Below the pieces are notes generated by a model. The model was not told where the DNA came from. It was given only the letters and a program-made list of their open reading frames with translations, and did not search any database. A DNA stretch of 63,500 bases from Kiritimatiellia bacterium. Its GTDB lineage: Bacteria; Verrucomicrobiota; Kiritimatiellia; UBA8416; JAWODU01. Positions 1 to 23,280 of the stretch are shown here, piece after piece. How positions within the stretch are numbered: the stretch's first letter is position 1; each line of letters opens with the position of its first letter. Position numbers and translations under genes: made by a program. The DNA lies in assembly GCA_046483125.1 (NCBI GenBank), contig JAWODU010000027.1, forward strand, positions 1-63,500, in the 5' to 3' direction.

Positions 1-119
1 GGTGGGACCCATGACAGTCCCCGCTCGATCCTCACCCTCTCCGGCAGAGGCTCCCGTACCCATCGAAGTCGTCGGCGCCGATGACCCCGTACCATGTATC
101 GACGGGGTCGAGCGGCCGA

Positions 120-156
120 CAAGTGGTCGTGGGTTCGAATCCCACCGCCCCGACCA
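120..156 (+). tRNA. 3' half of tRNA-Pro (variable loop, T-arm, acceptor 3' strand, CCA); att-site remnant or truncated tRNA
   Basis: CAAGTGGTC-GTGGG-TTCGAAT-CCCAC-CGCCCCG-A-CCA. The T-arm is perfect, and acceptor strand CGCCCCG with discriminator A is typical of tRNA-Pro. The expected 5' half (CGGGGCG...) is absent upstream. Confidence 0.8.
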
Positions 157-259
157 TTTCAGATTTTTCGGCGAATTCGCTGGTTTTCGCATCGGCGGAA
201 CCGGCGCGTGCGATGACTGCCCACGGCTCGGGAAACTCGACTGCGAGAACCGGAACCGG

Positions 260-296
260 CCTGCCTGCCAGGCCGTAGCCCTTGGGCGAAGGCTGG
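260..296. repeat. REP-like palindromic unit inside the recombinase remnant
   Basis: CCTGCCTGCCAGGCCGTAGCCCTTGGGCGAAGGCTGG, an imperfect hairpin containing GTAG. Confidence 0.4.
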
Positions 297-623
297 TCAG
301 CCCACCTTGAGGACGACCTCTCGGCGGACTTGTCGCGACAGGAGACAGCGCCTTGCCGTGCTCCATTCGGGCCAGCATGTCGTTGAAGATGGGCCGCCCC
401 GGAGTCTTGGCCGTACGCGACTCGACGAATTCACGTAGTACCGTAAGACCCTCATTGCCCGCGTACTCGCGTAGCTCGGCAAGCTGTGCCTCGATAGAGA
501 GCATCTGCCGTTCCTCATCGTCGGTCGACTTCCTCACATAGATAAAGAACTTCATGACTGCCTTCTGTAATGTACCTGTCTAGGGTGTAGACTATTATGC
601 ACCTATATGGTGTGCTTGCAGGC

Positions 624-869
624 ATGAAACGGCGAAACAGAGTTCCGAAGCATCGAAAGAGTTTCGGGGATGCAATACGGGCGGGGCGTACTGAGTTGGG
701 GCTTTCGCAAGAAGATCTGGCAGAGTGCGTCGGTTGCCATCGGAACTATCTGGGGCGCATCGAACGTGGAGAACAGAACATCACCCTGGACATGATGGTT
801 CGCGTGGCAAAGGCTCTTAACTGCGAGGTGCCTGATCTATTCACGAGAGGCGAGAAAGGGGAAAGTTGA
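624..869 (+). CDS. XRE/Cro-C1 helix-turn-helix transcriptional regulator
   Basis: FGDAIRAGRTELGLSQEDLAECVGCHRNYLGRIERGEQNITL is an HTH_3 pattern; divergent from the recombinase. Confidence 0.9.
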   Translation: MKRRNRVPKHRKSFGDAIRAGRTELGLSQEDLAECVGCHRNYLGRIERGEQNITLDMMVRVAKALNCEVPDLFTRGEKGES

Positions 870-1378
870 AGACGACAATTATATTTGCTCTTGCCTGTTT
901 CATGATCGCGACTGGAACGACCGCGCTCTATAGACAGTTCCGTCCCGAGTGGGTGGACTTCAGGAAAGGCGAAGAGAGCTTTATGAAAGGGGAATACACG
1001 GAAGCGTCGGTTCATTATCGACACGCCATCGAACGGGGGCTAACAGAACCTTCTGTGTTTCTGCGCTGCTCTCAAGCGCAATTGCTTGACGCCGACTATC
1101 CGGGCGCAGAGGAAACAGCATCTGAATATCTTCGCCACCCGGTATGGAGACCCGACCATGCCTATGAACTGGCCGAGATCTTTCTCTCCAAGGGCCGCTT
1201 CGGCACAACTTTGGAAATCCTTCAGAAAGTGGTTTCAGAGAATCCCGAAGACAGAAAGGCGCGTTTCAGGTTGGCACAGGTGCTGGCATGGACGCATGAA
1301 TTTGAGGCATCTATAGGCCACTATCACAAACTACTGGAGAGCAACCATGAAAAACACGGACAGGAAGAACGCGAGTAG
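866..1378 (+). CDS. Exported/membrane-anchored TPR protein
   Basis: N-terminal hydrophobic segment and TPR-like repeats (ARFRLAQVLAWTHEFEASIGHYHKLL); TTG start overlaps the XRE stop. Confidence 0.8.
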   Translation: MKTTIIFALACFMIATGTTALYRQFRPEWVDFRKGEESFMKGEYTEASVHYRHAIERGLTEPSVFLRCSQAQLLDADYPGAEETASEYLRHPVWRPDHAYELAEIFLSKGRFGTTLEILQKVVSENPEDRKARFRLAQVLAWTHEFEASIGHYHKLLESNHEKHGQEERE

Positions 1379-1982
1379 ATCACTTACAAGTATCGTCATT
1401 TTGCTGTTGGCAGTAACACAGACCCTTGCCGGCGAAGGCAAAACGAAGAAGGAGGAGGGTGAAATCCCGGATTGGAAAGCTCGCTGGGAACTGGCTCGCA
1501 CGCTGAGCTATGCCAAGAAACTGGACGAGTCCATTGCGCAATACGAGAAGCTTCTGGAGGAAAGACCGGAGATTGGGGAGGCGAAGGCTGAAATGGCCAC
1601 GGTAATGTTCTGGAAGGGTAAGCAGGAGGAAGCCCTCAAGATCCTTGAGGAAGTGCCGGAGAAAGAGCTCACATCGGAAGCCCAACTGGCTAGAGCGGAT
1701 ATCTACGCGTCCAAGGGTAAATACGCCATGGCAGAGAAACTGTATCGAGAGCACTTGAAGGATCACCCGAAGGCGGATCAGGTAAAGCTGAGGCTCGCCG
1801 AGACGCTAAGTTGGGCAAAGAAGTACGCTGAATCCGTTAAGGAATACGAGGCCATTCTCTTGAACCGGCCGAAGGACATTCAGGTAAGGCGTAAGTACGC
1901 GCTGGTGCTCAGTTGGATGGGCCGTCACGACAGGGCTGCGGCCGAACTCGAGAAGACGCTCGCGGAGGAGCATTCCAAATGA
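1347..1982 (+). CDS. Periplasmic TPR protein
   Basis: Signal peptide and repeated LARTLSYAKK / LAETLSWAKK / YALVLSWMGR TPR units. Confidence 0.85.
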   Translation: MKNTDRKNASRSLTSIVILLLAVTQTLAGEGKTKKEEGEIPDWKARWELARTLSYAKKLDESIAQYEKLLEERPEIGEAKAEMATVMFWKGKQEEALKILEEVPEKELTSEAQLARADIYASKGKYAMAEKLYREHLKDHPKADQVKLRLAETLSWAKKYAESVKEYEAILLNRPKDIQVRRKYALVLSWMGRHDRAAAELEKTLAEEHSK

Positions 1983-4612
1983 CGGGAATGGCCGGCAGTC
2001 AGCGATGGCTTGGGGCACAGCATAGCATTTCGCTAGCTGTAGCAGCCCTGGCAATACTGCGACTTGCCGGTCTATGCCATGCTTCGTCGGATACCATCGT
2101 GCCGCGTGATCAATGGGTGTCTGATGAACATGCCAGAGCCATTGTCGTTCTGTGCGAAGCAGAAGGCGGGAATGAAAAAGCAGCACGGGACTCATACTAC
2201 CATCTACTGAGCACATCCAATCTGACGTGGGGAATCCGGCTCCAACTCGCAGAGATACCCCTGTCCTGGGGGGACTATGCCAGTGCCGATCGGATATACA
2301 ATGAGTACTTGGAGACACATGCCGATGACTGCGACATCCTTGCGAGGCGGGCCGCCGTGTTGGCTGCAGCGCAGCAGTATGAACGCGCTGAAGGATTGAC
2401 CAGGCGTTGCATCCTGCACAAACCAGATAACGTTGCGCTACTGCTCCAGCTCGCCGACATTAAGCGCGCCGGCGGGGAGTTCTCCGCCGCTTTGAAGATT
2501 CTCGAAGACCTCCCATCTTCAAGGAACTCACACTACGTTGCCGCTGTTCTGGAGGCAAGGGGTAAGATACTGCTTAACTTGAAGGAATGGGTGGAGGCGA
2601 GAGCAACCTACAAAACACTAAGCGGATTGCCCGATCGCCTGAAAAACGGGCTGACCGGTTTGGGACTCTGTGATTTGGGCCAGGGCGAGAAGCAGACGGC
2701 ACTCGGACGCTTCGAAGCGATTCTACAGATCGATCCATCCGACATCTCCGCCCGGTTTTACAAACTTCTGTGCGCGGGCGATGAACCCGGCAGCGAGTCG
2801 TTTCTCAAGAGTGTGCATGAGGGGTGGTCCATACCGGATTTGATTGCATGGGCGGAGCTTTGCAGCAAAAACGGCGACCATCCCGGAGCCATTCGTACCC
2901 TGCGGCATGCTTTGACAAGACATCCCGCATCATATGTCGTACGCCTGAACCTTGCGCGCACATTAGCTTCACGCAGGGAGTTTGATGAAGCCCTGGATGT
3001 ATACCGAGAGCTGAATGCAGACTTTTCAAATAGTTATACCGCCCAACTGGAGTGGGCACGCACGCTTTCCTGGGCAAAGGAATATGATGTATCACTGGAC
3101 TTGTACGCCCGTCTGGTCGAGCAGGACCCGAAGAATGTCGTTCCCGGCAGGGAACGAGCTCGTGTCGCGGTCTGGGCCAAGAGAATGGATACGGCGTTGC
3201 AGTTCTACTCCGCGCTACTTGAACCTTCTGTCGACTCCCTGCTGGCGACCGAGCTGGCAGCGGCTGGGAGTGCAGAAACGCCGGCGATTCAAGATGTCCG
3301 CCATGAGGTGAAAGAGCGTTCAGGCGGTAGGCCTTATGATGCCTATGAATGGCTCTTTGTCGAGGGCAACACGAATGCCCTGGATGCCGTTGCCAAGGAG
3401 CGTTTGGGTGCCTTCCGCATGCGACATCTGGCGGCCTACAGGATACAGAAAGCCATTTACCTCGAAAAAGAAGAGAAGGATCTTGCCGAGAACAAGCGAT
3501 ACTGGCGCGCGGCGCAACTTGCGCGGCAACTTGTCGACTTCGCACCGGGTAACCAGGAGGCGGTGTACGATCTGAGCCAGCTCCAATTTGCCTTGGGGCT
3601 CGAACGCGAAGCTGTGCGGACTACGGAGAAGCTATACAGAACCAGTCCAAACCACAACATCGCACCTGAAATTCTCGAAACAGCCGCCAGGCGGCAACAG
3701 CCATATATTCTAGGTAACGGCTCTTACTGGCACGAGGAAGGGCGCGGGGATCTGATCGACATCACGAGGCTCCAATATGGCCTGGGCGTGGGTGTTCCCA
3801 TCTTGCAGCGTGGCCACCTGGAAGCCGCCGGCCGCTACTGGGACGAGCGTCCTCGCGTGAGTGATTCGTCCTATGAAGCAAGAGGTGTGTCTTTGCGCGG
3901 TCACGGCGTGCTTCTGCCCTGGCTGGTTGCAGACGGTTCGTTAGCGCTGAAAGACTATCTCAACGACGGTATTGACGATACGCGGACCGGCCACATCGAG
4001 TGCAGCGCCAATGTGCGTGACTGGGCAAAGTTGACCCTCAGACGTGAGCGAACTGATGAATTATACAACAAGTTTGGTTTAGAACAGAACACCCAAGCCG
4101 ATTCGTGGGTGTTGAAGGGCCATTCATTCCTGACGCGCGATCTCGAAATGACAGCCACTGGACAAATCATGGATTACTCCGACGGAAACCGTGGTGAGCA
4201 GGTTTATGCAAACCTGGCTTACAGCTTGACGGACCACCCTCGCATCCTCAAGGCGGCTGTTTTCGGCGAAACCAGAGACACGGATCATGAAACGGAATAT
4301 GTCGATGCAGACGGGACGTTGACGGATGTGGTCTATCCCTACTGGACTCCCGTTGACTACCAGGCGTGGGGTATCATGCTGGAGTGGCGTCACGACATCT
4401 CTCCCATATTCGCCCGAGGAACAGATCACCGTTACTACGATGTGCTCGTGACGCTGCGCGATGATTCGGAAGAAAATCCCACTGTAGAGATCAAAGGCCA
4501 ACTCCATGTTGAATTCCGAAAGCGGTGGTTGATCGGTTGTGAACTAGCGCTCATACGTTCCGAGCAGTGGGATGGCGAAGGACTCTGGCTCACAGTGAAA
4601 CGACATTTCTGA
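1979..4612 (+). CDS. TPR plus C-terminal outer-membrane beta-barrel protein (PgaA/BcsC/PelB-like polysaccharide export)
   Basis: ATG 1979 with GGAGGA RBS. About 580 aa of TPRs are followed by an alternating beta-strand region ending in terminal Phe (LWLTVKRHF); YWTP motif. Confidence 0.75.
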   Translation: MTGMAGSQRWLGAQHSISLAVAALAILRLAGLCHASSDTIVPRDQWVSDEHARAIVVLCEAEGGNEKAARDSYYHLLSTSNLTWGIRLQLAEIPLSWGDYASADRIYNEYLETHADDCDILARRAAVLAAAQQYERAEGLTRRCILHKPDNVALLLQLADIKRAGGEFSAALKILEDLPSSRNSHYVAAVLEARGKILLNLKEWVEARATYKTLSGLPDRLKNGLTGLGLCDLGQGEKQTALGRFEAILQIDPSDISARFYKLLCAGDEPGSESFLKSVHEGWSIPDLIAWAELCSKNGDHPGAIRTLRHALTRHPASYVVRLNLARTLASRREFDEALDVYRELNADFSNSYTAQLEWARTLSWAKEYDVSLDLYARLVEQDPKNVVPGRERARVAVWAKRMDTALQFYSALLEPSVDSLLATELAAAGSAETPAIQDVRHEVKERSGGRPYDAYEWLFVEGNTNALDAVAKERLGAFRMRHLAAYRIQKAIYLEKEEKDLAENKRYWRAAQLARQLVDFAPGNQEAVYDLSQLQFALGLEREAVRTTEKLYRTSPNHNIAPEILETAARRQQPYILGNGSYWHEEGRGDLIDITRLQYGLGVGVPILQRGHLEAAGRYWDERPRVSDSSYEARGVSLRGHGVLLPWLVADGSLALKDYLNDGIDDTRTGHIECSANVRDWAKLTLRRERTDELYNKFGLEQNTQADSWVLKGHSFLTRDLEMTATGQIMDYSDGNRGEQVYANLAYSLTDHPRILKAAVFGETRDTDHETEYVDADGTLTDVVYPYWTPVDYQAWGIMLEWRHDISPIFARGTDHRYYDVLVTLRDDSEENPTVEIKGQLHVEFRKRWLIGCELALIRSEQWDGEGLWLTVKRHF

Positions 4613-4613
4613 C

Positions 4614-6287
4614 ATGCAGAACGAAAAAGACAAGACACGATCGAAAAAGCATCATGGCAGAGCTTCGGTGCTGCTGCTGGCCATACCGGGGGCGGTGATC
4701 CTGGCGGCTGTTGCTTATCTCGTGGTTCGTACACTTCTCTTTCTGATTGCCGATTACGTTTGGTATGAGAAGGTCGTTGCTCTCGTGCTGCTGCTTGCGG
4801 AGGGCTTTCTGCTTCTGCACGGCGTGGGGTATTTCATGGAAATTGTGCGCGTTCTGGCCCGGCGGCGCGGGTGGAGGATCAGCGAGACGGAAATACCGGC
4901 GCTGGAATCGTTTCCGCCGGTTGCAGTGATCGTCTCATCATTCAAGGAACCTATCCCTGTGATTCGGGACACACTCACGGCATTCTACAATCTGGACTAC
5001 CCGAACAAGCAAATCTACCTGCTTGACGATACACGCTATGACATGCCGGGCAGCGACGTGCAGGAAATGACTGACTATCGCAATGCGGTCGGCAATCTTT
5101 GCCGGGACTTGAAAGTCGATCTTTTCCGGCGTTCCTGGCGCGGCGCGAAGGCAGGAATGATCAACGACTTCCTGGAGTTTGTGGACGGAAAGGCGAAAGA
5201 AGGGTTCTCGATTCAACGCTTCGCGCATTCGTTGCCTACTGACAAGCCGAAGTACATTGTTGTCTTTGATGCCGATATGAACCCGTTTCCAAGCTTTCTG
5301 GGCAAGCTGGTTCCCATCATGGAGAGCCAGCCACAGATGGCGTTCATCCAGACCCCGCAGTATTACACCAACTTCGAAGCCAACCGGATCGCCCGGGCCG
5401 CGGGTCTTCAGCAAGCGGTTTTCTACGAGTACATCTGCGAAGGTAAATCACTCCAGGATGCCATGTTCTGCTGCGGGACCAATGTCATCTTCCGCCGTGA
5501 GGCGCTGATGGATGTCGGTGGTTTCGACGAGACTTCGGTAACCGAAGACTTCGCCACGTCTTTGAAATTCCACTTACGGGGGTGGCATTCCGCATATCTG
5601 AACAGGGTCGGCGCTTTTGGAATGGGCCCAGAGGATCTGGTTTCTTATTTTAAACAGCAGTTCCGATGGGCGTTGGGCACCATAGGGTTGTTCAGGAAGA
5701 TAATTATCCTTTTCCTCCGAAATCCGAAAAGCCTGACGAAAGCCCGTTGGTGGGAATACGTTTTGTCCGGTTCATACTACTTTGTTGGTTTCGTTTTCTT
5801 TGTGTTGGCAGTATGCCCGATACTTTATCTCTTCTTCAATGTCCCGACGTTTTTCGCGAGGCCCGAGATCTACGTGCTCTTTTTTGTGCCGTACTTCGTT
5901 CTAACCCTATCCATATATGCGTTCACTCTCCGCGCCCGGCACTACACATTCAAAGAACTGGTTACTGGCCAATTGCTGATTGCTATCAGTTTCCCCGTTT
6001 ATCTGCGTGCTGCGCTTCTGGCGCTATTGGGTATTCGCGGCAAGTTCGCGGTTACCGGCAAAGACGGTTCCGCCATTGTGCCATGGCAGGCGATCTGGGC
6101 ACAACTTGCGTTGGCCGGCGCGTGCGTGGCTGCGATAGCTTGGGGAGCGAACAGGCTATACTACGAGAGAGCCGGCGTTCCGGCGATTGCCGTTAACATG
6201 GTCTGGTGCCTCTACCACACACTCATCCTATCGGCCGTACTGTATTTCCGGAATCCGGCTGAGACAAAGAAGGAAGCACAAGCGTGA
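4614..6287 (+). CDS. Processive GT2 polysaccharide synthase (cellulose synthase BcsA-like, no PilZ domain)
   Basis: Motifs YLLDD, GAKAG, FDAD, FIQTPQ, FCCGT, TED and QQFRW (QxxRW); 2 N-terminal and several C-terminal TM helices. Confidence 0.9.
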   Translation: MQNEKDKTRSKKHHGRASVLLLAIPGAVILAAVAYLVVRTLLFLIADYVWYEKVVALVLLLAEGFLLLHGVGYFMEIVRVLARRRGWRISETEIPALESFPPVAVIVSSFKEPIPVIRDTLTAFYNLDYPNKQIYLLDDTRYDMPGSDVQEMTDYRNAVGNLCRDLKVDLFRRSWRGAKAGMINDFLEFVDGKAKEGFSIQRFAHSLPTDKPKYIVVFDADMNPFPSFLGKLVPIMESQPQMAFIQTPQYYTNFEANRIARAAGLQQAVFYEYICEGKSLQDAMFCCGTNVIFRREALMDVGGFDETSVTEDFATSLKFHLRGWHSAYLNRVGAFGMGPEDLVSYFKQQFRWALGTIGLFRKIIILFLRNPKSLTKARWWEYVLSGSYYFVGFVFFVLAVCPILYLFFNVPTFFARPEIYVLFFVPYFVLTLSIYAFTLRARHYTFKELVTGQLLIAISFPVYLRAALLALLGIRGKFAVTGKDGSAIVPWQAIWAQLALAGACVAAIAWGANRLYYERAGVPAIAVNMVWCLYHTLILSAVLYFRNPAETKKEAQA

Positions 6288-7327
6288 AGCGCCACCAGAC
6301 AGTGGTCATGTTGCTGACCTGCACACTGCTTGCCGGGGGCGGATGTCGTGTAATGAGTGAGGGACATCCGGCGGCGGAAGCAACGTACGTAGGTTTCGCT
6401 CTGGATGGTTATCCCATAACGGAAGAGCGCTTACATGGGTTGGCCGGCCCTCAGGGACAGCGGCCGGACATGGTTATGTTCTATCTCCAATGGCCGTCCC
6501 CTGCGAACCTTGCTGGATCCGATTTTCCGACTGAAAGCGTCGAAGCAATTCATGATGCTGGATCGATGCCGTGCATAACATGGGAGCCAATGTACATTGA
6601 AGGCGGAGAAGAAAAGACCATTCAGGCTTCTGTTGTTACAAATGGGACCTACGATGCCTACATTCGGACCTTTGCGCGGCAAGCGGCCGATTGGGGGAAG
6701 CCGGTACTGGTTCGATTTGCTCATGAGATGAACATCAGCCGCTATCATTGGGGCACATCAGAAGCCGATTATGGTCCCGATAGCCCTCGCCTATACACTG
6801 CGCTGTTCCGTTATGTGGTAGAGCTCTGCCGAGACGCCGGCAATACAAACATACTCTGGGTGTTCTGCCCCAATGCGGAATCCGTGCCTGCCCCTTCACA
6901 AGAGGATGCAACAACTTGGAACAGGATGCTAAGCTACTATCCGGGCGATGCCTATGTCGATGTTCTGGGTGTGGACGGGTATAATTGGGGATTGAGCCGG
7001 AACACAAAAGAACACGGATGGACGAGTCGTCCCAAAACGTTCAGAGATATTTTCGAAAAACCGGTTCGCGAACTCACGATAGTCGCACCGCAGAAGCCAG
7101 TAATCGTTTTTGAGACCGCGAGCGTGGGCGACACTTCGGAAAAGTCCGAATGGCTTCGCAAAGCGTTCAACGCGTCCGCGGATCTCGACATACACGGAAT
7201 CATCTGGTTCCAGGTTGACAAAGAAACGTATTGGACACTGCCGGTTGAGGTGCTCTACGGACTGAAAAAGTCTACGGCCGCTCAGGGCCGCAACATTCAT
7301 CAGTGGATCAAAGGAATTCAGAAATGA
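6284..7327 (+). CDS. GH26 glycoside hydrolase (beta-mannanase-like), probable lipoprotein
   Basis: TWEP, RFAHEMN, YYPGDAYVDVLGVDGYN, nucleophile in VFET; lipobox-like LAGGGC. Confidence 0.85.
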   Translation: MKRHQTVVMLLTCTLLAGGGCRVMSEGHPAAEATYVGFALDGYPITEERLHGLAGPQGQRPDMVMFYLQWPSPANLAGSDFPTESVEAIHDAGSMPCITWEPMYIEGGEEKTIQASVVTNGTYDAYIRTFARQAADWGKPVLVRFAHEMNISRYHWGTSEADYGPDSPRLYTALFRYVVELCRDAGNTNILWVFCPNAESVPAPSQEDATTWNRMLSYYPGDAYVDVLGVDGYNWGLSRNTKEHGWTSRPKTFRDIFEKPVRELTIVAPQKPVIVFETASVGDTSEKSEWLRKAFNASADLDIHGIIWFQVDKETYWTLPVEVLYGLKKSTAAQGRNIHQWIKGIQK

Positions 7328-7560
7328 CCAAAGAGGAACTGCAGGAAAGCATATCAGAGGCGATCAGAACCGAGGAATCTGCTTCCGCTCTTTACCTGAA
7401 GCATCTTGACGCCATCGTCACGCGAAGCGGTTTGCCGGACAATACCGTTAACGAAGCGAGACAGATCGTATTCGCGCTGATAAATGCCAATAAGCGCCAT
7501 AAGGCGCTTCTGGAGGACTTGCGGGAACGAGTGCGGGGGGAGAAGATCGATGTTTACTGA
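7324..7560 (+). CDS. Small two-helix ferritin/rubrerythrin-like protein
   Basis: AIRTEESASALY...NANKRH helical-hairpin pattern; ATGA overlap with the GH26 stop. Confidence 0.55.
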   Translation: MTKEELQESISEAIRTEESASALYLKHLDAIVTRSGLPDNTVNEARQIVFALINANKRHKALLEDLRERVRGEKIDVY

Positions 7561-7768
7561 GAGTGATTTGCGCGAGTATTGTTCCGATCTCTTGAAGTTG
7601 GAAAACAAGATGAAGGCCGTATACAAAGACCTGTCGGCGCGGCTTTCACATGCTGAGCATAGCAAGTTATTTGCCCAGTTGGCCAAAGAAGAGCAACAAC
7701 ACGCATCACAGGTGAACCGCCTGTTGGAGATTCTTGTGGGAGGTACCAAGCCCGACCGTTCTGCATGA
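7550..7768 (+). CDS. Small two-helix ferritin/rubrerythrin-like protein
   Basis: LENKMKAVY...LFAQLAKEEQQH with an ExxH metal-ligand motif; overlaps the previous gene. Confidence 0.65.
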   Translation: MFTESDLREYCSDLLKLENKMKAVYKDLSARLSHAEHSKLFAQLAKEEQQHASQVNRLLEILVGGTKPDRSA

Positions 7769-7953: not shown

Positions 7954-8937
7954 CTACCCGCCCCACGTTGAAGGGTCCTTTGCGAGCCGGACGAATTCGT
8001 CGCACATGGCCTCGATGGCTTCATCGGTGTGGCCTGCTCCGGCGGGATCCGGGTACCACTTGGGGATAAAGCCGCCCCGGGGGCGGCCGAGGCGGCGGAC
8101 CATATCGCGGCAGTAGGCGCGTATCTCATCCGGGTTGCCGCGCGCCATGGTGTTCTGGATATCCACGGGGGAATAGAAAGCGATCCGGCCGCCGAACCGT
8201 TCCCCGAGCTGTTCGAGCCCCATGTTTTCCTGTTGATCCATCTGAATCACTTCCAGTCCCGCGTCAATCATGTCGTCGAGGACATCGACGATATAGCCGC
8301 ACGAATGCAGAATGGTGTGGAGTCCCGCCTCGCGGGCGGCGCCCCACACGCGGGAATAGCGGGGTTTCCACAGAGCGCGCCATTTTTCCGGATCGATCAT
8401 AAGTCGATCCTGAAGTCCCCAGTCGTCCATACTGATAATGGCGTCCACGTCATACGCCGCGTAACGTTCGATCGCGTAGAGGTTGATATCGACCAGTATG
8501 TCTATGAGGCGGCACAGTTCATCCGGACCGGTGTGAATGTCCATCCACGCGTTCTGCAGGCCGCGGATGAAGTGGATGCGTTCAAAGAGACTGGTGGCTG
8601 TGGCAACGAGGAACCTGTCGCCGGCTTCCTCGCGTGCGCGCTTCACGCCTTCCCATCGGCGTTCTTCGCGGATGTCGGGCACATTCAGTTTGCCAAGATC
8701 GGCCCAGTGCTCCAGAGGGGATTCGACGACCTCGCCCAGCTTGCAAAGTCCGATGTTGCGCCAGAGACAACCCCACTCGTCGCGTTCTTCGGTGAAGTCG
8801 CCGTACGGCCGATGGTCCGGGTGGGGATCCGCGCATGTGGAGGCGAAGTCACTGCCCCAGCTATCGGGAAGATTAAACGGCAGTCGCGGAGGCGATTGGA
8901 ACGTAATCGCGGAATGGACGATTTCGCGCGGTGTCAT
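7954..8937 (-). CDS. Uroporphyrinogen decarboxylase-like (URO-D/MtaA-CmuA superfamily) protein
   Basis: DEWGCLW, MDDWGLQ, LHSCG, VDIQ motifs. Confidence 0.85.
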   Translation of the reverse strand: MTPREIVHSAITFQSPPRLPFNLPDSWGSDFASTCADPHPDHRPYGDFTEERDEWGCLWRNIGLCKLGEVVESPLEHWADLGKLNVPDIREERRWEGVKRAREEAGDRFLVATATSLFERIHFIRGLQNAWMDIHTGPDELCRLIDILVDINLYAIERYAAYDVDAIISMDDWGLQDRLMIDPEKWRALWKPRYSRVWGAAREAGLHTILHSCGYIVDVLDDMIDAGLEVIQMDQQENMGLEQLGERFGGRIAFYSPVDIQNTMARGNPDEIRAYCRDMVRRLGRPRGGFIPKWYPDPAGAGHTDEAIEAMCDEFVRLAKDPSTWGG

Positions 8938-9072: not shown

Positions 9073-10929
9073 ATGGCGAATACACTGTACGTAAGCGTGA
9101 ATGGGTCGGACGCTGAGACCGGCACGGATAAACCGCTGGCCAGTCTGTCGGCCGCACTGGAGCGATCGAGGCAAACGGGCATCAAGAGGATAGTTGTCGG
9201 CCCCGGCCGCTACTTCGACGTCGGTCTCGTGCTGAAACCGGAGGATTCCGGTCTGACCATCACGGGCAGTGGTGAAGGCCGGACCATTCTTTACGGCGGA
9301 TGCAAGGTCGAGAACTGGCAGAAGGATGGTCATTTCCTGTTCGCGGAACTGCCCGGAATAAGCGCGAGGGATTGGGATTTCCGGGCTTTTGTTGTAAATG
9401 ACAGGCTCTGTCCCCGCGCGCGCGTACCCGAAACCGGAACTTTTCAGCACCTGAGCGAGTTTGACGTCCGCTGGCTGAGCACCACCGATGGAGGATGGGA
9501 ACGCAGGCCCACGGAATACGAGCTGACACACATGCGATACGGACCGGAGGATCTGGATCCATGGCTCGACGTGAACAACGCCGAACTGACGATATTCCAT
9601 TGCTGGGATGAATCGCTCGTGGGCCTCTCTGAGGTGAACCGGGAAGAACACGAACTTGCTTTTCGCAACCCGTCCCATCATCCGCCGGGCGGCTTCGCGG
9701 GTTCGCACGAGCAGGCAAGGACCTATGTCGTCTGGAACGTGCGGGAGGGCATGAAAAAGCCCGGGCAGTGGTACCTTGACAGATCCGCCGGAAGGCTTGT
9801 CTACTGGCCGTTGCCGAGTGAGACGGCGGAAAATATATTGGCCGTTGCCCCGACAACGGGGTCCATCATCAGGCTCGCCGGGACGGAGAGTGAACCGATC
9901 ACAGATGTCACAATCAGCGGCCTGACGCTGTCGGCAACAACCACGCCCCTTCTGGCGGCCGGCTACGGAGGTAATGTTTATCCGGGAGCGATCGACGGCG
10001 GTCATTTACGCGGATGCACGTTTTCCGATCTGGATATCCGGGCGGTCGGCGGTCACGGCATTCGCATATTCCGGTTCACGGATCTGGATGTGTCCCGGTG
10101 TCACGTCCATCACACCGGCACGGGCGGGATCTACTGCCGGAGTCGAGGTGACGGTCTGACCGTGCGCGAAAACTACGTTCACGATGTGGGACTGCTATTT
10201 CCAAGCGGCATAGGAATCAGCTGTAGCGCGCGACATCTGGTGATTCAGCATAACCGCATTCACGATACTACTTATTCCGGTCTTGTATCCGGGGGTTCCC
10301 CGGAAGGCGACATTTCGTACAACCGGTTCGAGCGCGTGATGACAGCTCTGCGGGACGGAGCCGCGATATATATCTTTGCCGGCCGCAGAATGCGGATTCA
10401 CCGCAATGTGGTTCGTGATATCGACAGCCAGCTCGGGCACGGCTACTACCTTGATGAACGGAGTGAGGGCTGTATTGTTGAGAATAATCTTGCCGTGAAC
10501 TGTCCGTGGCCCTCTCACAATCATATGGCAAAGGACTGCACGATCAGGAACAACGTGTTCATCAGCAATGGGCCAATGAACGTCAGTCTTCTCAGGTGCC
10601 GGGACTTCACGTTCGAAAGAAATGTATTGAAGGCGCGGGAACAGGTCTCGTTTACGGGTCCGCCAAATGCCTTCGCGAAAATGCAGGACAACGTGATATT
10701 CAGCGGGGAAGGCAGGTACGTTCGAGCGGTTACCGGCATGGAGAATTACGTGAACGTGAAGGAGGAGGAATTTGAGGCCGTTGATGGAACGGTTCTGAGG
10801 GATCCGATGATAGAGGATTCGTCCTCGGAGCATATCAGCTACCTTCCCGAAAGCCCGGTGTCGGAGCTTGGAATCAAGCCCCACGACTTTTCAGGAGCAG
10901 GGCGGCTGAAAACGCGCCGCGTTAGCTGA
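9073..10929 (+). CDS. Right-handed parallel beta-helix protein (putative polysaccharide lyase/hydrolase)
   Basis: LYVSVNGSD start, repeated IxHNRIHD/ISYNRFE/IHRNVVRD coils, DGAAIY and YYLDE motifs. Confidence 0.85.
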   Translation: MANTLYVSVNGSDAETGTDKPLASLSAALERSRQTGIKRIVVGPGRYFDVGLVLKPEDSGLTITGSGEGRTILYGGCKVENWQKDGHFLFAELPGISARDWDFRAFVVNDRLCPRARVPETGTFQHLSEFDVRWLSTTDGGWERRPTEYELTHMRYGPEDLDPWLDVNNAELTIFHCWDESLVGLSEVNREEHELAFRNPSHHPPGGFAGSHEQARTYVVWNVREGMKKPGQWYLDRSAGRLVYWPLPSETAENILAVAPTTGSIIRLAGTESEPITDVTISGLTLSATTTPLLAAGYGGNVYPGAIDGGHLRGCTFSDLDIRAVGGHGIRIFRFTDLDVSRCHVHHTGTGGIYCRSRGDGLTVRENYVHDVGLLFPSGIGISCSARHLVIQHNRIHDTTYSGLVSGGSPEGDISYNRFERVMTALRDGAAIYIFAGRRMRIHRNVVRDIDSQLGHGYYLDERSEGCIVENNLAVNCPWPSHNHMAKDCTIRNNVFISNGPMNVSLLRCRDFTFERNVLKAREQVSFTGPPNAFAKMQDNVIFSGEGRYVRAVTGMENYVNVKEEEFEAVDGTVLRDPMIEDSSSEHISYLPESPVSELGIKPHDFSGAGRLKTRRVS

Positions 10930-10964
10930 GAAGAGCATTTCATCCGGAAGGGAGGAGTCCACTC

Positions 10965-13043
10965 ATGAAGAAGCTGAAATGCAGGATCAGTGTTGATGTA
11001 AAGCCTTTTGAATCCGTCGCCGGAGCGGCCGGGGCAGAGAAGAGGGTCGAGTGGCACAGGGGCGGACCGAAATCAACTGCCTGCACGCTGGGGTATGCCG
11101 CAAAGGAGCTGGCTTCACACTTGCGGCAGATCGGACGTCGACTCGATATTCCTGCGAGCGTCACGTGGAGCAGTAAGAAGACACCCGGAGTTCTCAGAAT
11201 CCAGCTTGGTGTTGTTTCCGCATCGGCCGGCTTCGTTCCCGCCGTTCCCGTTTCTCTGAGCAGGCGTCTTGCGGATCCGCAGTCTTTTGCCATTCGGGCC
11301 ATGGGCACAAGGTCCGACCCCGTGATTCAGATATGCGGCGGATCGCGGACGGGACTCCTCTACGGCGTTTACTCATACCTCGAGTGGCTCGGGTTCCGGT
11401 GGCTCGATTTCGATGACCGGGAGGCATCACTGAAGTTTCGCGGCTGTCTGTGGAGGAAGTCGCTCAAGGTCATTGATAAACCCGACTTTCCTCTGCGCGG
11501 ATTCCATACGGGACAGCGGCGTGCATCGAAGAAGTTGCTCGTGTGGTGCGCGAGGAACAGGGTCAATTACTACGGACGGCAGGATGATCTCTGGCCGCTC
11601 CAGCGCAAGCTGGGAATGTTTCTGTCCGCGGAAGGCCACATTTTTCACCGAATCTTCGATCCCGGTAAGAAGACGGGGCGGGGCAAGACATTGTTCGATA
11701 AACATCCGGACTGGTTTTGTCTGCGTGACGGGAAACGACAACCTCTTGTCGGCCGACCGTGTCTCGGTAACCGCGAAGCAGTGGCTTACCTGATTGAGGA
11801 ATGGATCAAGGCGTACCGCTCCTTCCTGCCCTGTGTGGATGCCGTCCGGCTATGGCCGCAGGACTTCTGGGACCAGTGGTGTGAATGCGATAAATGTCGA
11901 CGACTGGGTTCCCGAAGCGATCAGTTACTCCGTATAGCCCACGCGGTGCGCCGCAGGCTGGACAAGGAGAGAAGTTCGCCTGGCGACGGACGAGACACAA
12001 AGATTTTCATCTGCGCCTACGGCGGATCGGGGACCCTGGATCCTCCGGAATCAGCGCTTCCCCGCGGTTTCGATAAGAAGGGTGTGGTAGTCGAGTATTT
12101 CCCGATCAACCGATGCTATAACCACTCGCTGGAGGATCCGCGCTGTACCGAGATCAACAGGCGATACAGGAATACACTGTCCGGTTGGCGCCGCACGGGT
12201 CTTCCGCTGATCATGGGCGAGTACTACAACGTGAGTATGAATGTCAACCTGGCAATGGGGTTCAACCGCGTTATGGATGCCGATCTGAAGGCCTATGCTC
12301 GCATGAAGCTCGACGGCGTTCATTACATGCATGTTCCACAGCAGACATGGGGGCCGCGTGCATTGACGCAGTGGCAGTTTGCGCGACAGCTGTGGTGCGC
12401 CGCAGAACCGGGGAGAAGAATCAGGAACGCCTACCTGAAAAGACGGTACGGGGACCTGGCGGATCGGGCCAGGAAAGCTTACGACGATCTCGAACGGGCC
12501 ACGGGCAATATCAATCTTCTGACCAGTTGGATCGACGCCTCCGTGGTCATCAGGCTGAGGCGCCTTTTCTGTCATACGTATATGGGCGATCTCAGCACAC
12601 AGAATCTGTTCGTGCTCGATCACTTCGACCTGTTTGACCGTGAAGAAACAGTGCCCGGGTACGGGGTTGGGAGTCTTCAAGCCATGGTCCGGCTTCTTAA
12701 TCGTTCGAAGAAGCAATTTGTGTCGCTCCGGAAGCGTGCGGATACACCGGCATTGTGCAAGGTTCTTCGGGACGACGCCTTACTCCTTGGGTACACGTGC
12801 GAGTTTGTTCAGCTCAATTACCGGCTCGCGCTTTACTGGTTCTATGCTAAGGAACAAGGTGCGTCCTCCGGGCAGGCGCGCCTGCATCTCCGGAAGGCCC
12901 GCTCATCCTGCAGGAAGCTGGACAAGCTGGTAACTGACGGACTTGACATCGGTCATCGCGCTCTCGCGACGACCCACATCGACGATTTACTTTGCTCCAT
13001 CCAGCCGGAAAGCGGTCTGGACCGCGTCACACACTCCAAGTAG
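10965..13043 (+). CDS. DUF4838-like putative glycoside hydrolase with GH67/GH20-type N-terminal domain
   Basis: GLLYGVYSYLEWLGFRW, PDFPLRG, KHPDWF, WCECDKC motifs. Confidence 0.7.
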   Translation: MKKLKCRISVDVKPFESVAGAAGAEKRVEWHRGGPKSTACTLGYAAKELASHLRQIGRRLDIPASVTWSSKKTPGVLRIQLGVVSASAGFVPAVPVSLSRRLADPQSFAIRAMGTRSDPVIQICGGSRTGLLYGVYSYLEWLGFRWLDFDDREASLKFRGCLWRKSLKVIDKPDFPLRGFHTGQRRASKKLLVWCARNRVNYYGRQDDLWPLQRKLGMFLSAEGHIFHRIFDPGKKTGRGKTLFDKHPDWFCLRDGKRQPLVGRPCLGNREAVAYLIEEWIKAYRSFLPCVDAVRLWPQDFWDQWCECDKCRRLGSRSDQLLRIAHAVRRRLDKERSSPGDGRDTKIFICAYGGSGTLDPPESALPRGFDKKGVVVEYFPINRCYNHSLEDPRCTEINRRYRNTLSGWRRTGLPLIMGEYYNVSMNVNLAMGFNRVMDADLKAYARMKLDGVHYMHVPQQTWGPRALTQWQFARQLWCAAEPGRRIRNAYLKRRYGDLADRARKAYDDLERATGNINLLTSWIDASVVIRLRRLFCHTYMGDLSTQNLFVLDHFDLFDREETVPGYGVGSLQAMVRLLNRSKKQFVSLRKRADTPALCKVLRDDALLLGYTCEFVQLNYRLALYWFYAKEQGASSGQARLHLRKARSSCRKLDKLVTDGLDIGHRALATTHIDDLLCSIQPESGLDRVTHSK

Positions 13044-13055
13044 ACTTTTCAAACC

Positions 13056-14516
13056 ATGTTGAAGCAGAAGAGAACACTCTACGCTTTCGAATCCGACGCG
13101 TTGGAGGAAACCGCCAATCTCACCCTCTGTCTCAAGGAGCCTGCCCCCGACCCGGACAACCCCGTTGTGCCGCTGGGGGCGAACGGCGAGCCGGATGAAG
13201 ACAAACTCTGCTACACCGCATCCGTCGACCGTCGAGGCGAAGGCTACGGTATGTGGTACCAGGCACAGGACAGTCGGCGCCGTCTGACCCGATGCTTCGC
13301 CTCGAGCCTCGACGGCTTCGAATGGAAGAAGCACGGAGTTATCGGCGAAGGACTGTTCAACACCCTGGGCAACAGCTTCAATGTGTACAACGACGAAGAT
13401 CGTTTTCTTGCGCCTCTCACTTCGCTCGGGACCGATCCATCGATCGATCCCGCTTACGCGGCACTGCAGGCGGAAGATGTCCCCGACGAGCGGCGCAAGA
13501 CTGCAATCGAAAACTCACTGGCAAAAAGCGGACGATGCGGGGTAACCACGTTCGTGGGTATAGCGACGAGCGATGACGGACTTGACTGGAAACTTCCGCC
13601 GCGGACACCGCGTCTGCCCATGATGCTCGAAGCTCCGTGGATCTACCGGTTCCGGGGCCACTACATCATGAACGCCCAGACCCACGGCGCCTGGTTCGAT
13701 CCGCCGGTGTCCGGCGTACGGCGTGTGGCGTTTTTCACAAGCGATGACCTGGTCAACTGGAAACTCCAGCCCGGGTACATGAAGAACACGGCGCATGAAG
13801 CCATCAAGGGCATGACGCATGTAGGCGTCGTGCCGATCAAACGCATCGATGAACGACTGCTCATAGGACTGGGCGGACGATTCGACGACGAGCCCGAGTT
13901 GCCGCAACAGCATTTTGAGGTTACGCTTCTGTATTCGACCGACGGATTGGACTGGAAGCCCATGGTCCCCCAAGTCGAAAGAAGAAACTGGATCCGGCGC
14001 GGCCGGCCCGGTGAATGGGATTTCGGCGGGGTAACCGGCATGGGAATGACGGAGAAGGGGGACCGGGCCGCCGCATATTACAGCGGCACAACAATCGGGA
14101 ACGGCAGTCACGCCTTTCCTCCGTACGATCCGGGCCCGTGCCGGGTCGGCCGGGTATGTTTTACGCGTGATCGTTTCGCTGCGCTTCAACCGGCCGTCGG
14201 ATGGAACGCCATCTTCGAGCACGCGCAGGCCGGCGGCGCGTCGGGTTCATTAATGACGAAGCCGATCGAGCTCTCGACGGATCGACCTCTTACGCTGAAC
14301 CTGGAGATTCCTGACGGGGCGGGGGCGGAGGTGAAAGTCGAAGTGTTAAGCTCTGGGGGTACGGTATGTGACTCCGCGAAGGTGCAGGAGGGCGGTGTCG
14401 GAGTACCGGTGCCGCTGGAGAAACCGGCGCCGCGGGAGCCTGTGCGTCTCCGTCTCACGCTGAGCGGTGGTACTGCGCCAGACCGCGTGCCGCGCCTGTT
14501 TGCAATTGAATACTAA
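13056..14516 (+). CDS. Five-bladed beta-propeller glycoside hydrolase-like protein
   Basis: Repeated S-x-D-G-x-x-W Asp-box units (SLDGFEW, SDDGLDW, SDDLVNW, STDGLDW); C-terminal RDRFAAL / LTLN sandwich. Confidence 0.65.
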   Translation: MLKQKRTLYAFESDALEETANLTLCLKEPAPDPDNPVVPLGANGEPDEDKLCYTASVDRRGEGYGMWYQAQDSRRRLTRCFASSLDGFEWKKHGVIGEGLFNTLGNSFNVYNDEDRFLAPLTSLGTDPSIDPAYAALQAEDVPDERRKTAIENSLAKSGRCGVTTFVGIATSDDGLDWKLPPRTPRLPMMLEAPWIYRFRGHYIMNAQTHGAWFDPPVSGVRRVAFFTSDDLVNWKLQPGYMKNTAHEAIKGMTHVGVVPIKRIDERLLIGLGGRFDDEPELPQQHFEVTLLYSTDGLDWKPMVPQVERRNWIRRGRPGEWDFGGVTGMGMTEKGDRAAAYYSGTTIGNGSHAFPPYDPGPCRVGRVCFTRDRFAALQPAVGWNAIFEHAQAGGASGSLMTKPIELSTDRPLTLNLEIPDGAGAEVKVEVLSSGGTVCDSAKVQEGGVGVPVPLEKPAPREPVRLRLTLSGGTAPDRVPRLFAIEY

Positions 14517-14541
14517 TGGAATAACTCAGAAGGGAATTACC

Positions 14542-15406
14542 ATGGATTTATCGAAGCATTCGCTTTTCGCATCTCATACCGACCCCGGGTCCGGTGTTGT
14601 CAGCTAACTGCTCGACAAACGCGTCGCGCCGCACCAGCAGGGCTTCTACTTCGTCAACGACAGCATGTCGGCCGATGCCCGATACCTGTGGCTTTACTGC
14701 TTCTTCCCTCCTTCAGACGGAAAGACCCTTGCCGTCGCCGACCTCGAAAAGGGTACCGTCAACGAGTTCCGTGAAACCCAGTTCACGGGTGAGTCACCCT
14801 ATGTGACTCCCGAGACCGGCGAGGTGTACTGGGGGTGCGGGCCTGCGGTTTACCATCGCGGACCCGATCCCGACAGCTCGATCGAGATGATAAACCGTAT
14901 TCCCGAAGAAATAATTGCGGGACGCAGGATGGCAAGAATCGCGACACACCTGACGCGTTCGGCCGACGGCAAAGAGTTCTTTGTCGATGCCGCCATAGGC
15001 ATGGAGTCGGTCTTCGGTTCACTGCCGCTGGACGGAAGTGACTACCGGTTCTGGTACAGGTTCAACTTCAGTCACAACCACGCCCAGTTCAGTCCGACGG
15101 ATCCCGATATGGTTCTCTTCGCGATGGAACACCACAGGGACCAGCACCCTGTTTGCGGGCGACGCCAACAGGCGGTTCTATCGGGGATGTCCCAACACGG
15201 TGAACTTCCTCAACAGGAATACCGGCAAGTCGGTTCAAATAGCATCACATGAGGAAACGGGCGGCATTGTCGGCAGGAACTATCACATCGACCCGCATCC
15301 CCGGTTCTGCGCAAACGACACTTTCGTGGTCTACACCACAACCGTGAGGGGTCATGTCGACGTAGCCCTGGTTCCTGTCTCCGACCTGATTTCACGCACT
15401 CAGTAG
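14542..15406 (+). pseudogene. Oligogalacturonate-lyase-like beta-propeller pseudogene (paralog of 35608-36738)
   Basis: In-frame TAA at 14605-14607. After HHRD (~15142) there is a frameshifting deletion of roughly 85 codons relative to the intact paralog; the C-terminal HIDPHPRF motif is in another frame. Confidence 0.85.
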
Positions 15407-15450
15407 ACGGCTCTACGGCCCTTTTCCGTACGCTGGCTTGACGGCCACTT

Positions 15451-21276: not shown

Positions 21277-21530
21277 TGGATTTTGCCCCTTCTGCCCTTC
21301 TGTGTATGTATTCGCGCTGAGAGCATAAATATAACACATTTTTTGAAAAAAATGCATCTTTTCACGCGCAGGCCGGTATTCGTCGGCGAATAGCGGCAAC
21401 CGATGCCGGTTTGCGAAATGAACCTTTGGCCGGTTTTATACGATTAAAGTAGCAACACAGCCGGGCTGGATTTTCATTATCAGGAACAGTCCGGCAGGCA
21501 AAACACTGCGTGTAAGCAAAAGAGAGAGGC

Positions 21531-22856: not shown

Positions 22857-22860
22857 TCTC

Positions 22861-23169: not shown

Positions 23170-23280
23170 AACATTTTATCTACGGCAACACCCGGCAGGA
23201 AGCAGGACAGGATGGCCAATGCTGAAATTCGGGGTTTTTTCGACGTCATGACGAGAACTTAACAGCCCGAGGGCTCGAAA

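Follow-up and report, generated by a model that had tools for sequence, protein, structure and literature searches.

Few synthase-dependent exopolysaccharide secretion systems of Gram-negative bacteria are well characterised, namely those for cellulose (Bcs), poly-N-acetylglucosamine (PNAG), alginate and Pel, and to our knowledge each of them is switched by cyclic di-GMP (c-di-GMP). A further BcsA-like synthase, the rhizobial BgsA, carries a C-terminal c-di-GMP-binding domain, and export is by a HlyD-type adaptor and TolC, as described in the accessible text of PMC13438883. The stretch of DNA analysed here (the window) is the entire 63,500-nucleotide contig JAWODU010000027.1 of a Kiritimatiellia bacterium (assembly GCA_046483125.1), whose genome of 2.59 Mb in 122 contigs has a completeness of 91%. 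At positions 866-7768 it holds a cassette of seven plus-strand genes that encode two tetratricopeptide repeat (TPR) proteins (TPR1 and TPR2), a TPR-barrel porin, a family 2 glycosyltransferase (GT2), a family 26 glycoside hydrolase (GH26) and two small proteins (s85 and s94). A preliminary description, made from the letters of the window, had proposed it as an undescribed synthase-dependent system. The comparisons reported below indicate that the cassette probably represents a family of its own among the synthase-dependent systems for exopolysaccharide secretion, when the explanation is taken as a whole with a glucan product and s85/s94 as a regulatory pair.

Species-representative genomes were scanned with the window GH26, which gave 52 loci (referred to by L numbers), and the window proteins were mapped onto them by tblastn. 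A GT2 gene was found directly upstream of the GH26 gene in 45 of the 52, and the remaining seven comprised five lone GH26 genes in Fibrobacterota (L048-L052) and two remnants (L044 and L047). The contig stops inside or just before the GT2 gene in 10 of these 45 loci; a TPR-barrel gene was present in all 35 that have sequence upstream of GT2, lying directly upstream of it in 33 and downstream on the other strand in two Chlamydiota loci (L039 and L046). Since the gene order is repeated in dozens of unrelated metagenome-assembled genomes (MAGs), the arrangement is not due to chance, and the gene set singled out in the preliminary description is conserved as a unit. By their record titles or the origins marked on the tree, the carriers belong to Thermodesulfobacteriota (including Syntrophales, Syntrophorhabdaceae, Desulfatiglandales and Desulfobacterales), Verrucomicrobiota, Lentisphaerota and Chlamydiota, together with a Brocadiaceae planctomycete and a Neomarinimicrobiota MAG. 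They span at least five named phyla and are mostly uncultured anaerobes and bacteria of the Planctomycetes-Verrucomicrobia-Chlamydiae group, environmental chlamydiae included. A protein search with the GT2 returned at least 1370 homologues at an E-value of 1e-20 or better among 8000 scored candidates, and the best 120 of these 1370 were 57-76% identical, 508-627 residues long and without exception free of a PilZ match (PF07238). Thiocapsa rosea is among the named organisms with a GT2 homologue.

The GT2 has a BcsA-type catalytic core, with the three aspartates (D, D, D), QxxRW and the FxVTxK gating loop. It was aligned to residues 137-511 of Rhodobacter sphaeroides BcsA (4hg6_A; E = 2e-38) with the motifs FDADM, GAKAGM, FCCGT, TED and QQFRW and the gating loop FAVTGKDG in register. 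Neither Pfam nor NCBIfam gave a PilZ match on the protein, which stops at residue 557 after two further hydrophobic helices, in agreement with the preliminary description of a synthase with the full motif set and no PilZ. The best NCBIfam match was the CelA model, and the scores stayed below the cut-offs of the BcsA equivalog TIGR03030 (229.4 bits vs 699.1), NF008558 (136.8 bits vs 992) and the PgaC model (74 bits vs 422). For pairwise BLAST, the references were one BcsA from the bcsOQABC operon of an Enterobacter kobei plasmid and three further proteins, namely BgsA, a BgsA-like protein and another GT2 encoded on pSymB; the BgsA is the Sinorhizobium meliloti pSymB gene picked out by its upstream HlyD gene, which fits bgsBA as given in the accessible text of PMC13438883. 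The window GT2 shared 28% identity with BcsA (154 bits) and 30% with BgsA (125 bits), BcsA and BgsA were 33% identical to each other (256 bits), and identities within the cassette family were 49-56% (542-646 bits). Since the cassette GT2s are at least as distant from BcsA and BgsA as these two are from one another, they form a separate BcsA-like synthase lineage. By tblastn, 492 plasmid records matched the GT2, all at less than 60% identity, and the best 40 of these 492 matches had 26-30% identity, most of them over genes annotated bcsA.

The porin has a signal-peptide-like start, ca. 530 residues of TPR solenoid and a C-terminal barrel of 16-18 predicted strands that ends in Phe. An AlphaFold2 model built from an alignment of 30 homologues had a mean predicted local distance difference test score (pLDDT) of 89.2 and a predicted template modelling score (pTM) of 0.87, with helices up to residue 572 and 17 strand segments over residues 576-876. 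The best structural matches in VIA-align were PelB (9h80_M; Z 25.2, root-mean-square deviation (rmsd) 4.7 over 351 residues), BcsC (6tzk; Z 25.0, rmsd 4.4, 330 residues), PgaA (4y25; Z 24.8, rmsd 3.0, 275 residues) and two further BcsC entries (9b8a, Z 24.8, rmsd 11.1, 416 residues; 9b8h_A, Z 24.4, rmsd 16.6, 453 residues). The rows after these five were generic TPR proteins (Z of 19.1 or less) and the barrels of CymA, BamA and OmpG (Z ca. 16), and Foldseek retrieved the same exopolysaccharide porins as VIA-align. The model thus upholds the earlier reading of a TPR plus beta-barrel protein whose C-terminus folds as a barrel, and gives the cassette the predicted TPR and beta-barrel exporter that is a general trait of synthase-dependent systems.

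TPR1 starts with a hydrophobic helix bearing a TT-x-x-Y motif, which is also visible in 19 related loci, and this helix is read as a conserved inner-membrane anchor rather than a cleaved signal. TPR2, which was 38-61% identical in most loci by tblastn, has a signal-peptide-like N-terminus and is probably secreted into the periplasm. A Parachlamydiales MAG (L040:4473-8279) and a Verrucomicrobiota MAG (L043:2581-5907) have uninterrupted open reading frames (ORFs) of 1268 and 1108 residues, respectively, that run from a TPR1-type membrane helix to the barrel, and in both the fused TPR1-TPR2-porin frame is followed by GT2, GH26, s85 and s94. Because of these natural fusions, TPR1, TPR2 and the porin are regarded as one continuous scaffold reaching from the inner to the outer membrane, and the earlier suggestion that the stand-alone TPR proteins extend the periplasmic conduit gains support. 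PelB has the same succession of an N-terminal membrane helix, TPRs and a barrel.

The identity of the hydrolase provides a clue to the polymer. Searched alone, the GH26 had the lichenase CtLic26A of Clostridium thermocellum (2bv9) as its closest solved relative (1.5e-30, residues 47-320), and mannanases followed at 1.3e-8 or worse over ca. 100 residues. A family profile built from 37 cassette sequences matched CtLic26A over its full length (2e-50, 174.7 bits), the best mannanase over part of its length (4.1e-12, 48.7 bits) and the xylanase AlXyn26A at 1.3e-4; no NCBIfam model matched the protein. The putative catalytic residues Glu148 (HEMN motif) and Glu277 (FET motif) were aligned with the glutamates of the lichenase and were invariant in 37 of 37 sequences. 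Both the glutamates and the closest relative assign the GH26, as judged from its sequence, to the lichenase (CtLic26A) branch. Lichenases form a separate branch in the GH26 phylogeny according to the accessible text of PMC6556568. CtLic26A was the single reported GH26 lichenase before Lic26A of Clostridium saccharoperbutylacetonicum, the second, which is also active on xyloglucan with its beta-1,4-glucan backbone (accessible text of PMC7157769). The window GH26 has a signal peptide, in which Cys21 is preceded by LLAGGG, a non-canonical lipobox, and among its homologues clear lipoboxes occur in some and ordinary signal peptides in others. The enzyme is therefore expected to be secreted and may be a lipoprotein, so that the earlier label of a GH26 lipoprotein was right as to the family and the signal peptide and holds in part for the lipid anchor.

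The gene neighbourhoods of related cassettes were also considered. The L004 cassette is flanked by genes for a UDP-glucose pyrophosphorylase and a GalT-like protein, the latter upstream at L004:2661-3740. In BLAST clustering these families occurred in 5 and 6 loci, respectively; the genes sit in loci of the type with a PilZ protein (see below), and L040 has a gene whose sole Pfam match is a UGP3-like C-terminal domain. The kinship with CtLic26A and the UDP-glucose and GalT-like neighbours therefore favour a beta-glucan made from UDP-glucose. Taken together, these features point to a beta-glucan, possibly with mixed 1,3/1,4 linkages, and disfavour mannan and 1,3-xylan; the preliminary description had named a beta-mannan, a mixed-linkage glucan or a beta-1,3-xylan, and of these the glucan was retained.

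The two last genes of the cassette encode proteins with neither a signal peptide nor a hydrophobic segment. They were directly downstream of GH26 in the window and in all 22 s85-type GT2 loci. Of the 24 related loci with an s85 gene, 22 have s94 after it, as does the window; it is missing in L029, where the contig ends, and degenerate in L017. In an alignment of 24 s85 sequences, E17, E18, H27 and H59 were invariant and the position three before H59 was variable, and in 23 s94 sequences E18, Y25, E48 and H51 were invariant, which make up an E plus ExxH motif. The two families were aligned end to end by hhalign (E = 6.6e-5, 64% probability) with their Glu/His positions in register, and on this sequence likeness s85 and s94 are classed as paralogues. 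The s94 profile matched 2fzf (2.9e-7), symerythrin (4.8e-6) and EncB (1.1e-4), and also designed due-ferri bundles and TM1526, and the s85 profile matched the encapsulated ferritin EncC (7s8t; 5.1e-4, residues 1-74), so that the ferritin-like pair of the preliminary description was recovered among diiron and encapsulated-ferritin proteins. Pfam alone gave a sub-threshold Rubrerythrin match for s94 and none for s85, and in the ESM Atlas the clusters like s85 and s94 are named hypothetical protein, with a Rubrerythrin label in a minority of some. A search of 1.84 billion representatives with the s85 profile gave 320 relatives at 1e-3 or better, the best 150 of which were all small stand-alone proteins of 60-116 residues; since these best 150 of the 320 stop above the weak region, the search neither supports nor refutes a link to PilZ fusions.

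When s85 and s94 were modelled together, the predicted complex had an ipSAE of 0.69 as compared to 0.01 for the best control. The mark set for this score is reached by 58 of 80 solved complexes and by 2 of 110 mismatched pairs, counts that hold roughly here, where own alignments were used. At least 83% of the contacts agreed between the prediction runs, and the pLDDT of the partners was at least 80. The predicted interface takes in residues 17, 27 and 59 of s85 and 18, 47 and 51 of s94. The two proteins are thus predicted to pair as half-ferritins into a four-helix heterodimer whose core holds a Glu/His cluster and may bind metal. A role of the pair as encapsulin cargo was considered and dropped, as the cassette has no shell gene. 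Side observations on these genes came from three loci. At L017:11230-11600 an s94 homologue has a normal start and diverges after ca. 20 residues, a degenerate copy in a cassette that is otherwise intact. The two remnants (L044:1048-2028 and L047:10001-10843) consist of a GH26 fragment and then intact s85 and s94 genes with no GT2 gene upstream, even within the 10 kb of upstream sequence present in L047.

A second module was found by clustering all ORFs of the related loci. Many cassettes without s85/s94 have a gene for a protein of ca. 270 residues near GH26 on the opposite strand. The protein of L004 has an N-terminal PilZ domain (Pfam, 23.4 bits vs a cut-off of 22.5 bits), and its model (pLDDT 80.9) consists of a beta-barrel (residues 1-123) and a helical domain (residues 133-268). 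In Foldseek the barrel matched PilZ domains, namely those of YcgR, Alg44 and BcsA (best E = 1.5e-3, probability 1.0), and the helical half had no match. The motifs RxxxR and DxSxxG were kept in 9 of 13 aligned PilZ proteins. Counted with hidden Markov models (HMMs) over the 45 cassettes, s85 was present in 22, the PilZ protein in 15, neither in 8 and both in none; the s85/s94 pair and the stand-alone PilZ protein are thus mutually exclusive in this set. On a tree of 39 GT2 sequences, the s85 and PilZ states need at least four changes. Four loci with neither module and at least 3 kb of downstream sequence (L015, L022, L023 and L035) were searched for a third module, and the genes found there were unrelated enzymes.

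The helical domain of the PilZ protein also resembles s85. The s85 HMM matched the L004 PilZ protein at 1.2e-4, and hhalign aligned residues 20-73 of s85 with residues 147-202 of the PilZ protein (E = 6.9e-5, 63% probability); both families share, with little or no variation, a Y-L-x-H-L motif and an Arg that follows the His of this motif at a distance of seven residues. The corresponding alignment of s94 covered one helix (E = 3.1e-4, 39% probability). At the positions of the two s85 glutamates the PilZ protein has Lys and Gly. Based on these results, the cassettes may have one regulatory slot with two fillings, either PilZ plus a helical adaptor or a related pair of helical proteins with a Glu/His centre, which is the least secure of our proposals. 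The window genome has one GGDEF gene, and no c-di-GMP receptor was found in the window or in the genome. Neither PilZ nor BcsB (PF03170, for which the Escherichia coli control was positive) was matched in this genome, an absence left unproven by its completeness of 91%. The preliminary remark that no BcsB or c-di-GMP receptor is visible was therefore true of the window, and 15 related loci carry a separate PilZ protein.

Signalling genes were observed near the PilZ-type cassettes. A block at L004:11006-19097 encodes a hybrid histidine kinase (dCache-PAS-HisKA-REC), a REC-PP2C phosphatase, a STAS protein and an RsbW-like kinase, and the UDP-glucose pyrophosphorylase gene adjoins it. Among the 15 sister loci with the PilZ protein, BLAST found the family of the L004 STAS protein in 11 and that of the RsbW-like kinase in 10. 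Similar blocks are seen in L003, L005-L007, L009, L021, L038, L039 and L046; the Pfam annotation of the blocks covers the L004 members and the REC-PP2C protein of L046.

Based on these observations, it is proposed that the cassette works as described below. The BcsA-like GT2 in the inner membrane would polymerise a UDP-sugar, most likely UDP-glucose, and thread the chain across this membrane. The scaffold, made up of anchored TPR1, soluble TPR2 and the TPRs of the porin, would guide the chain through the periplasm to its exit by the C-terminal 16-18-strand barrel. A periplasmic GH26 of the lichenase type would trim or release the polymer, a task that elsewhere falls to BcsZ, PgaB or AlgL. The s85/s94 four-helix heterodimer, with the conserved Glu/His cluster at its interface, would serve as a regulatory subunit of the synthase, and in the sister cassettes this slot would be taken by the PilZ protein with its related helical tail. 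A more far-reaching version, which we put forward as doubtful, is that s85/s94 is a metal-centre sensor, for example of O2, redox state or iron, that docks on the cytosolic face of the synthase, gates synthesis and replaces the c-di-GMP/PilZ control, that the PilZ-type sisters keep a metal-free copy of the helical module as a docking adaptor, and that the product, a mixed-linkage beta-glucan, leaves through the TPR porin and not through TolC.

Several observations weigh against the proposed scheme, and those on the polymer bear on two alternatives. The polymer is read solely from the hydrolase and a few neighbouring genes, and since the second Lic26A cleaves xyloglucan, the GH26 is unable to separate mixed-linkage glucan from cellulose. 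The cassette might thus be a streamlined cellulose system with a divergent BcsA, a BcsC equivalent and a GH26 replacing the GH8 enzyme BcsZ, whose product is ordinary cellulose. Among solved structures the GT2 is closest to BcsA and has every motif in place, the CelA model is its top NCBIfam match, BcsC is among the top fold matches of the porin, and homologues are labelled cellulose synthase in one source; beta-1,4-glucan backbones, too, are cleaved by a Lic26A-type enzyme (accessible text of PMC7157769). The GT2, however, falls short of the cut-off for the BcsA equivalog (229 vs 699 bits), its 28% identity to BcsA is lower than the 33% between BcsA and BgsA, BcsB and PilZ were found neither in the cassette nor in the 91%-complete genome, and the hydrolase falls in the sole GH26 branch known for lichenase activity. 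These points make a cellulose system rather unlikely and uphold the earlier view that the cluster does not map onto a characterised one; the stronger claim that a GH26 partner speaks for a polymer other than cellulose was weakened, as cellulose is still a rival. A non-glucan polymer, such as a mannan, a xylan or an amino-sugar polymer, would mean that the similarity to the lichenase is misleading. BcsA-like GT2 enzymes make several different polymers, and a UDP-N-acetylglucosamine 2-epimerase gene, which fits another sugar, adjoins the L023 cassette just downstream of GH26 (L023:7475-8686, minus strand); this cassette has neither regulatory module. Moreover, characterised GH26 enzymes are mostly mannanases and in part xylanases, according to the accessible text of PMC6556568 and PMC7157769. 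Against this stand the GH26 profile, with 2e-50 to CtLic26A vs 4e-12 to a mannanase and 1.3e-4 to a xylanase, and the presence of UDP-glucose pyrophosphorylase and GalT-like genes in several loci and of the UGP3-like gene in L040, so that we consider a non-glucan product very unlikely.

The regulatory part of the scheme faces objections of its own. The heterodimer is a model prediction from own alignments, and since s85 lacks the ExxH glutamate, any metal site would be non-canonical rather than a canonical diiron site. The likeness of s85/s94 to the tail of the PilZ protein is modest, and four of the 13 PilZ proteins (L033, L034, L041 and L046) lack RxxxR and DxSxxG; these may have lost nucleotide binding and kept the helical domain. 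The loci are derived from MAGs and their kinship inflates the exclusivity count, and the GT2 tree was built by a quick method, with seven short or interrupted rows dropped and the loci with neither module outside the count of changes. Thus s85 and s94 could be passengers, for example small iron or oxidative-stress proteins that are co-transcribed and non-regulatory. Their closest solved relatives handle iron (rubrerythrin-like proteins, symerythrin and encapsulated ferritins), their contact with the synthase is an inferred one, and 8 of the 45 cassettes do without either module. Passengers would, however, hardly be expected directly after GH26 in the window and in all 22 s85-type GT2 loci, with the starts of s85 and s94 in the window overlapping the preceding stop codons, nor to persist together with a GH26 fragment in the remnants L044 and L047. 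The pair and the PilZ protein, moreover, occur together in 0 of 45 cassettes with at least four switches of state on the tree, and the pair is similar in sequence to the helical domain of the PilZ protein. On balance, we regard a passenger role as unlikely, and the proposal that s85/s94 regulates the synthase is preferred.

The layout of the cassette and its flanks is given in Table 1. As the preliminary description stated, the seven genes overlap or abut, with overlaps of 4-32 nt or a 1-nt gap. The starts of three genes in the ORF list (porin 1913, s85 7303 and s94 7484) were moved, using translations and homologue alignments, to ATG codons at 1979, 7324 and 7550, respectively. Since a URO-D-like ORF on the opposite strand (7954-8937) comes next, the transcription unit would end at 7768. 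A promoter scan gave one promoter-like site (4.9 expected) and a terminator scan gave 10 terminator-like sites (7.9 expected), and neither was informative. When DNA read sets were sampled for words of the window, three runs from one freshwater-sediment study were found, the best with a fraction of 0.44 of the words, and no RNA read sets holding the window sequence were listed.

Table 1. Genes of the cassette and its upstream flank in the window, with the junction of each gene to the next.
Feature	Position	Strand	Length (aa)	Evidence and remarks	Junction with next gene
Resolvase-type recombinase	1..555	-		PF00239 Resolvase 4.4e-9; runs off contig end; flank, outside the system	
XRE-type helix-turn-helix (HTH) regulator	597..869	+	90	PF01381 3.3e-15; stop overlaps TPR1 start	4-nt overlap
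TPR1	866..1378	+	170	TPR_19 3.4e-7; N-terminal membrane helix	32-nt overlap
TPR2	1347..1982	+	211	TPR_19 5e-16; signal-peptide-like N-terminus	4-nt overlap
TPR-barrel porin	1979..4612	+	877	AlphaFold2 model, structural matches to exopolysaccharide porins	1-nt gap
GT2 synthase	4614..6287	+	557	Pfam PF13632 6.3e-24; Cellulose_synt 4e-9	4-nt overlap
GH26	6284..7327	+	347	PF02156 54.6 bits vs 20.2-bit cut-off	4-nt overlap
s85	7324..7560	+	78	Two-helix half-ferritin-like, predicted cytoplasmic; profile match EncC	11-nt overlap
s94	7550..7768	+	72	Two-helix half-ferritin-like, predicted cytoplasmic; profile matches diiron proteins	

The resolvase and HTH genes (window 1-869) that flank the cassette are unconserved in other loci, and the HTH gene had a tblastn match in 0 of the 52 related loci and is thus local to the window genome. 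In 401 genomes sampled from the phylum of the window, a strong GH26 match was present in three, the window genome included, and another of the three (L057) has the order GT2-GH26-s85-s94. The G+C content in sliding windows was 0.51-0.57 over the cassette vs 0.58-0.61 for those starting at 7.5-9.5 kb. The adjacent resolvase gene, this dip and the rarity in its own phylum therefore suggest that the cassette was acquired horizontally by the window genome. A separate observation concerns L063 (G254:C108:1889-5653), from the window's own order, in which a distant GT2 (30% identity) directly adjoins a distant Lic26A-like GH26 (32% identity); given this locus, the pairing of GT2 with GH26 may reach beyond the cassette family. 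Downstream, positions 9073-25044 of the window hold a set that looks like glycan degradation or surface genes, none of which is conserved with the cassette. It includes a beta-helix protein with a GH141-type insertion, a DUF4838 protein, a 1243-residue PKD/Big_9 protein, FecR, a TonB-plug protein and a heparinase II/III-like protein; the beta-helix, DUF4838 and heparinase-like genes had counterparts in none of the related loci.

The cassette would add another family to the synthase-dependent secretion systems and would offer a new synthase lineage, together with natural split and fused versions of a periplasmic scaffold. Its GH26 partner predicts the polymer and could serve to detect it. With its two regulatory modules, which would be interchangeable and of which one seems not to be nucleotide-based, the system makes testable the idea of a processive glycan synthase gated by something besides c-di-GMP, and it may be relevant to matrix formation in anaerobic consortia and granules. 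The literature searched, with most subscription journals and supplements outside it, held no description of a GT2-GH26-TPR-barrel system, and the accessible text there mentioned GH26 together with synthase-dependent secretion solely for an actinomycete Wzx/Wzy cluster. As far as these searches reach, the system is undescribed, and what is new is the GH26 of the lichenase branch, the predicted half-ferritin heterodimer, its exclusivity with the PilZ protein and the fused TPR scaffolds.

Compared with the known systems, the cassette is closest in plan to Bcs, with which it shares a BcsA-type GT2 (D, D, D, QxxRW and FxVTxK), a TPR-barrel exporter (BcsC 6tzk, Z 25.0) and a gene for a putative periplasmic endoglucanase next to the synthase gene. 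It differs from Bcs in that BcsB and a PilZ domain fused to the synthase are missing, the hydrolase is a GH26 and not the GH8 enzyme BcsZ, the TPR scaffold comes from three separate genes, including one for a membrane-anchored protein, and two half-ferritin genes are added. Pel provides PelB (9h80_M), the best structural match to the barrel and the last TPRs, and the fused scaffolds of L040 and L043 are PelB-like in topology. The cassette, however, lacks relatives of PelA and of PelC to PelG, and in the window the scaffold is three proteins; the Pel synthase is PelF-like, whereas that of the cassette is BcsA-like. In the PNAG system (PgaA-PgaB-PgaC-PgaD), the PgaA barrel gives the lowest rmsd to the porin (4y25, 3.0) and a GT2 is likewise paired with a periplasmic polymer-processing hydrolase, but the cassette has no deacetylase and no PgaD-like small membrane protein, and its GT2 scores 74 vs 422 bits in the PgaC model.

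The three remaining comparisons concern single components. CtLic26A, the GH26 module of CelH, is the closest solved relative of the hydrolase, with both catalytic glutamates aligned; it is a secreted cellulosomal degrader of plant glucan, whereas the cassette GH26 is a predicted periplasmic or lipid-anchored partner of a synthase. The subunits of EncFtn (EncB and EncC) and of rubrerythrin-like proteins resemble s85/s94 in having two helices and, as regards s94, an E plus ExxH motif, and in pairing, in the case of s85/s94 by prediction, into a four-helix bundle. Unlike the homo-oligomeric EncFtn, s85/s94 would join two paralogues in a heterodimer; the ExxH glutamate is missing from s85, and the pair is encoded inside an exopolysaccharide operon rather than beside an encapsulin shell gene. 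BgsA of the rhizobial BgsBA-TolC system is, like the cassette synthase, a BcsA-like GT2 without PilZ; it makes a non-cellulosic beta-glucan, and the product of the cassette is possibly the same. The two systems differ in the TPR-barrel porin and GH26 of the cassette, which has no HlyD match, and in the synthase itself, BgsA having 669 residues as compared to 557 in the window GT2, with a local alignment of 349 columns. The cassette thus departs both from Bcs, in BcsB, the PilZ of the synthase, GH8 and the equivalog score, and from the traits of BgsBA-TolC, and it is a variant of the known synthase-dependent architecture.

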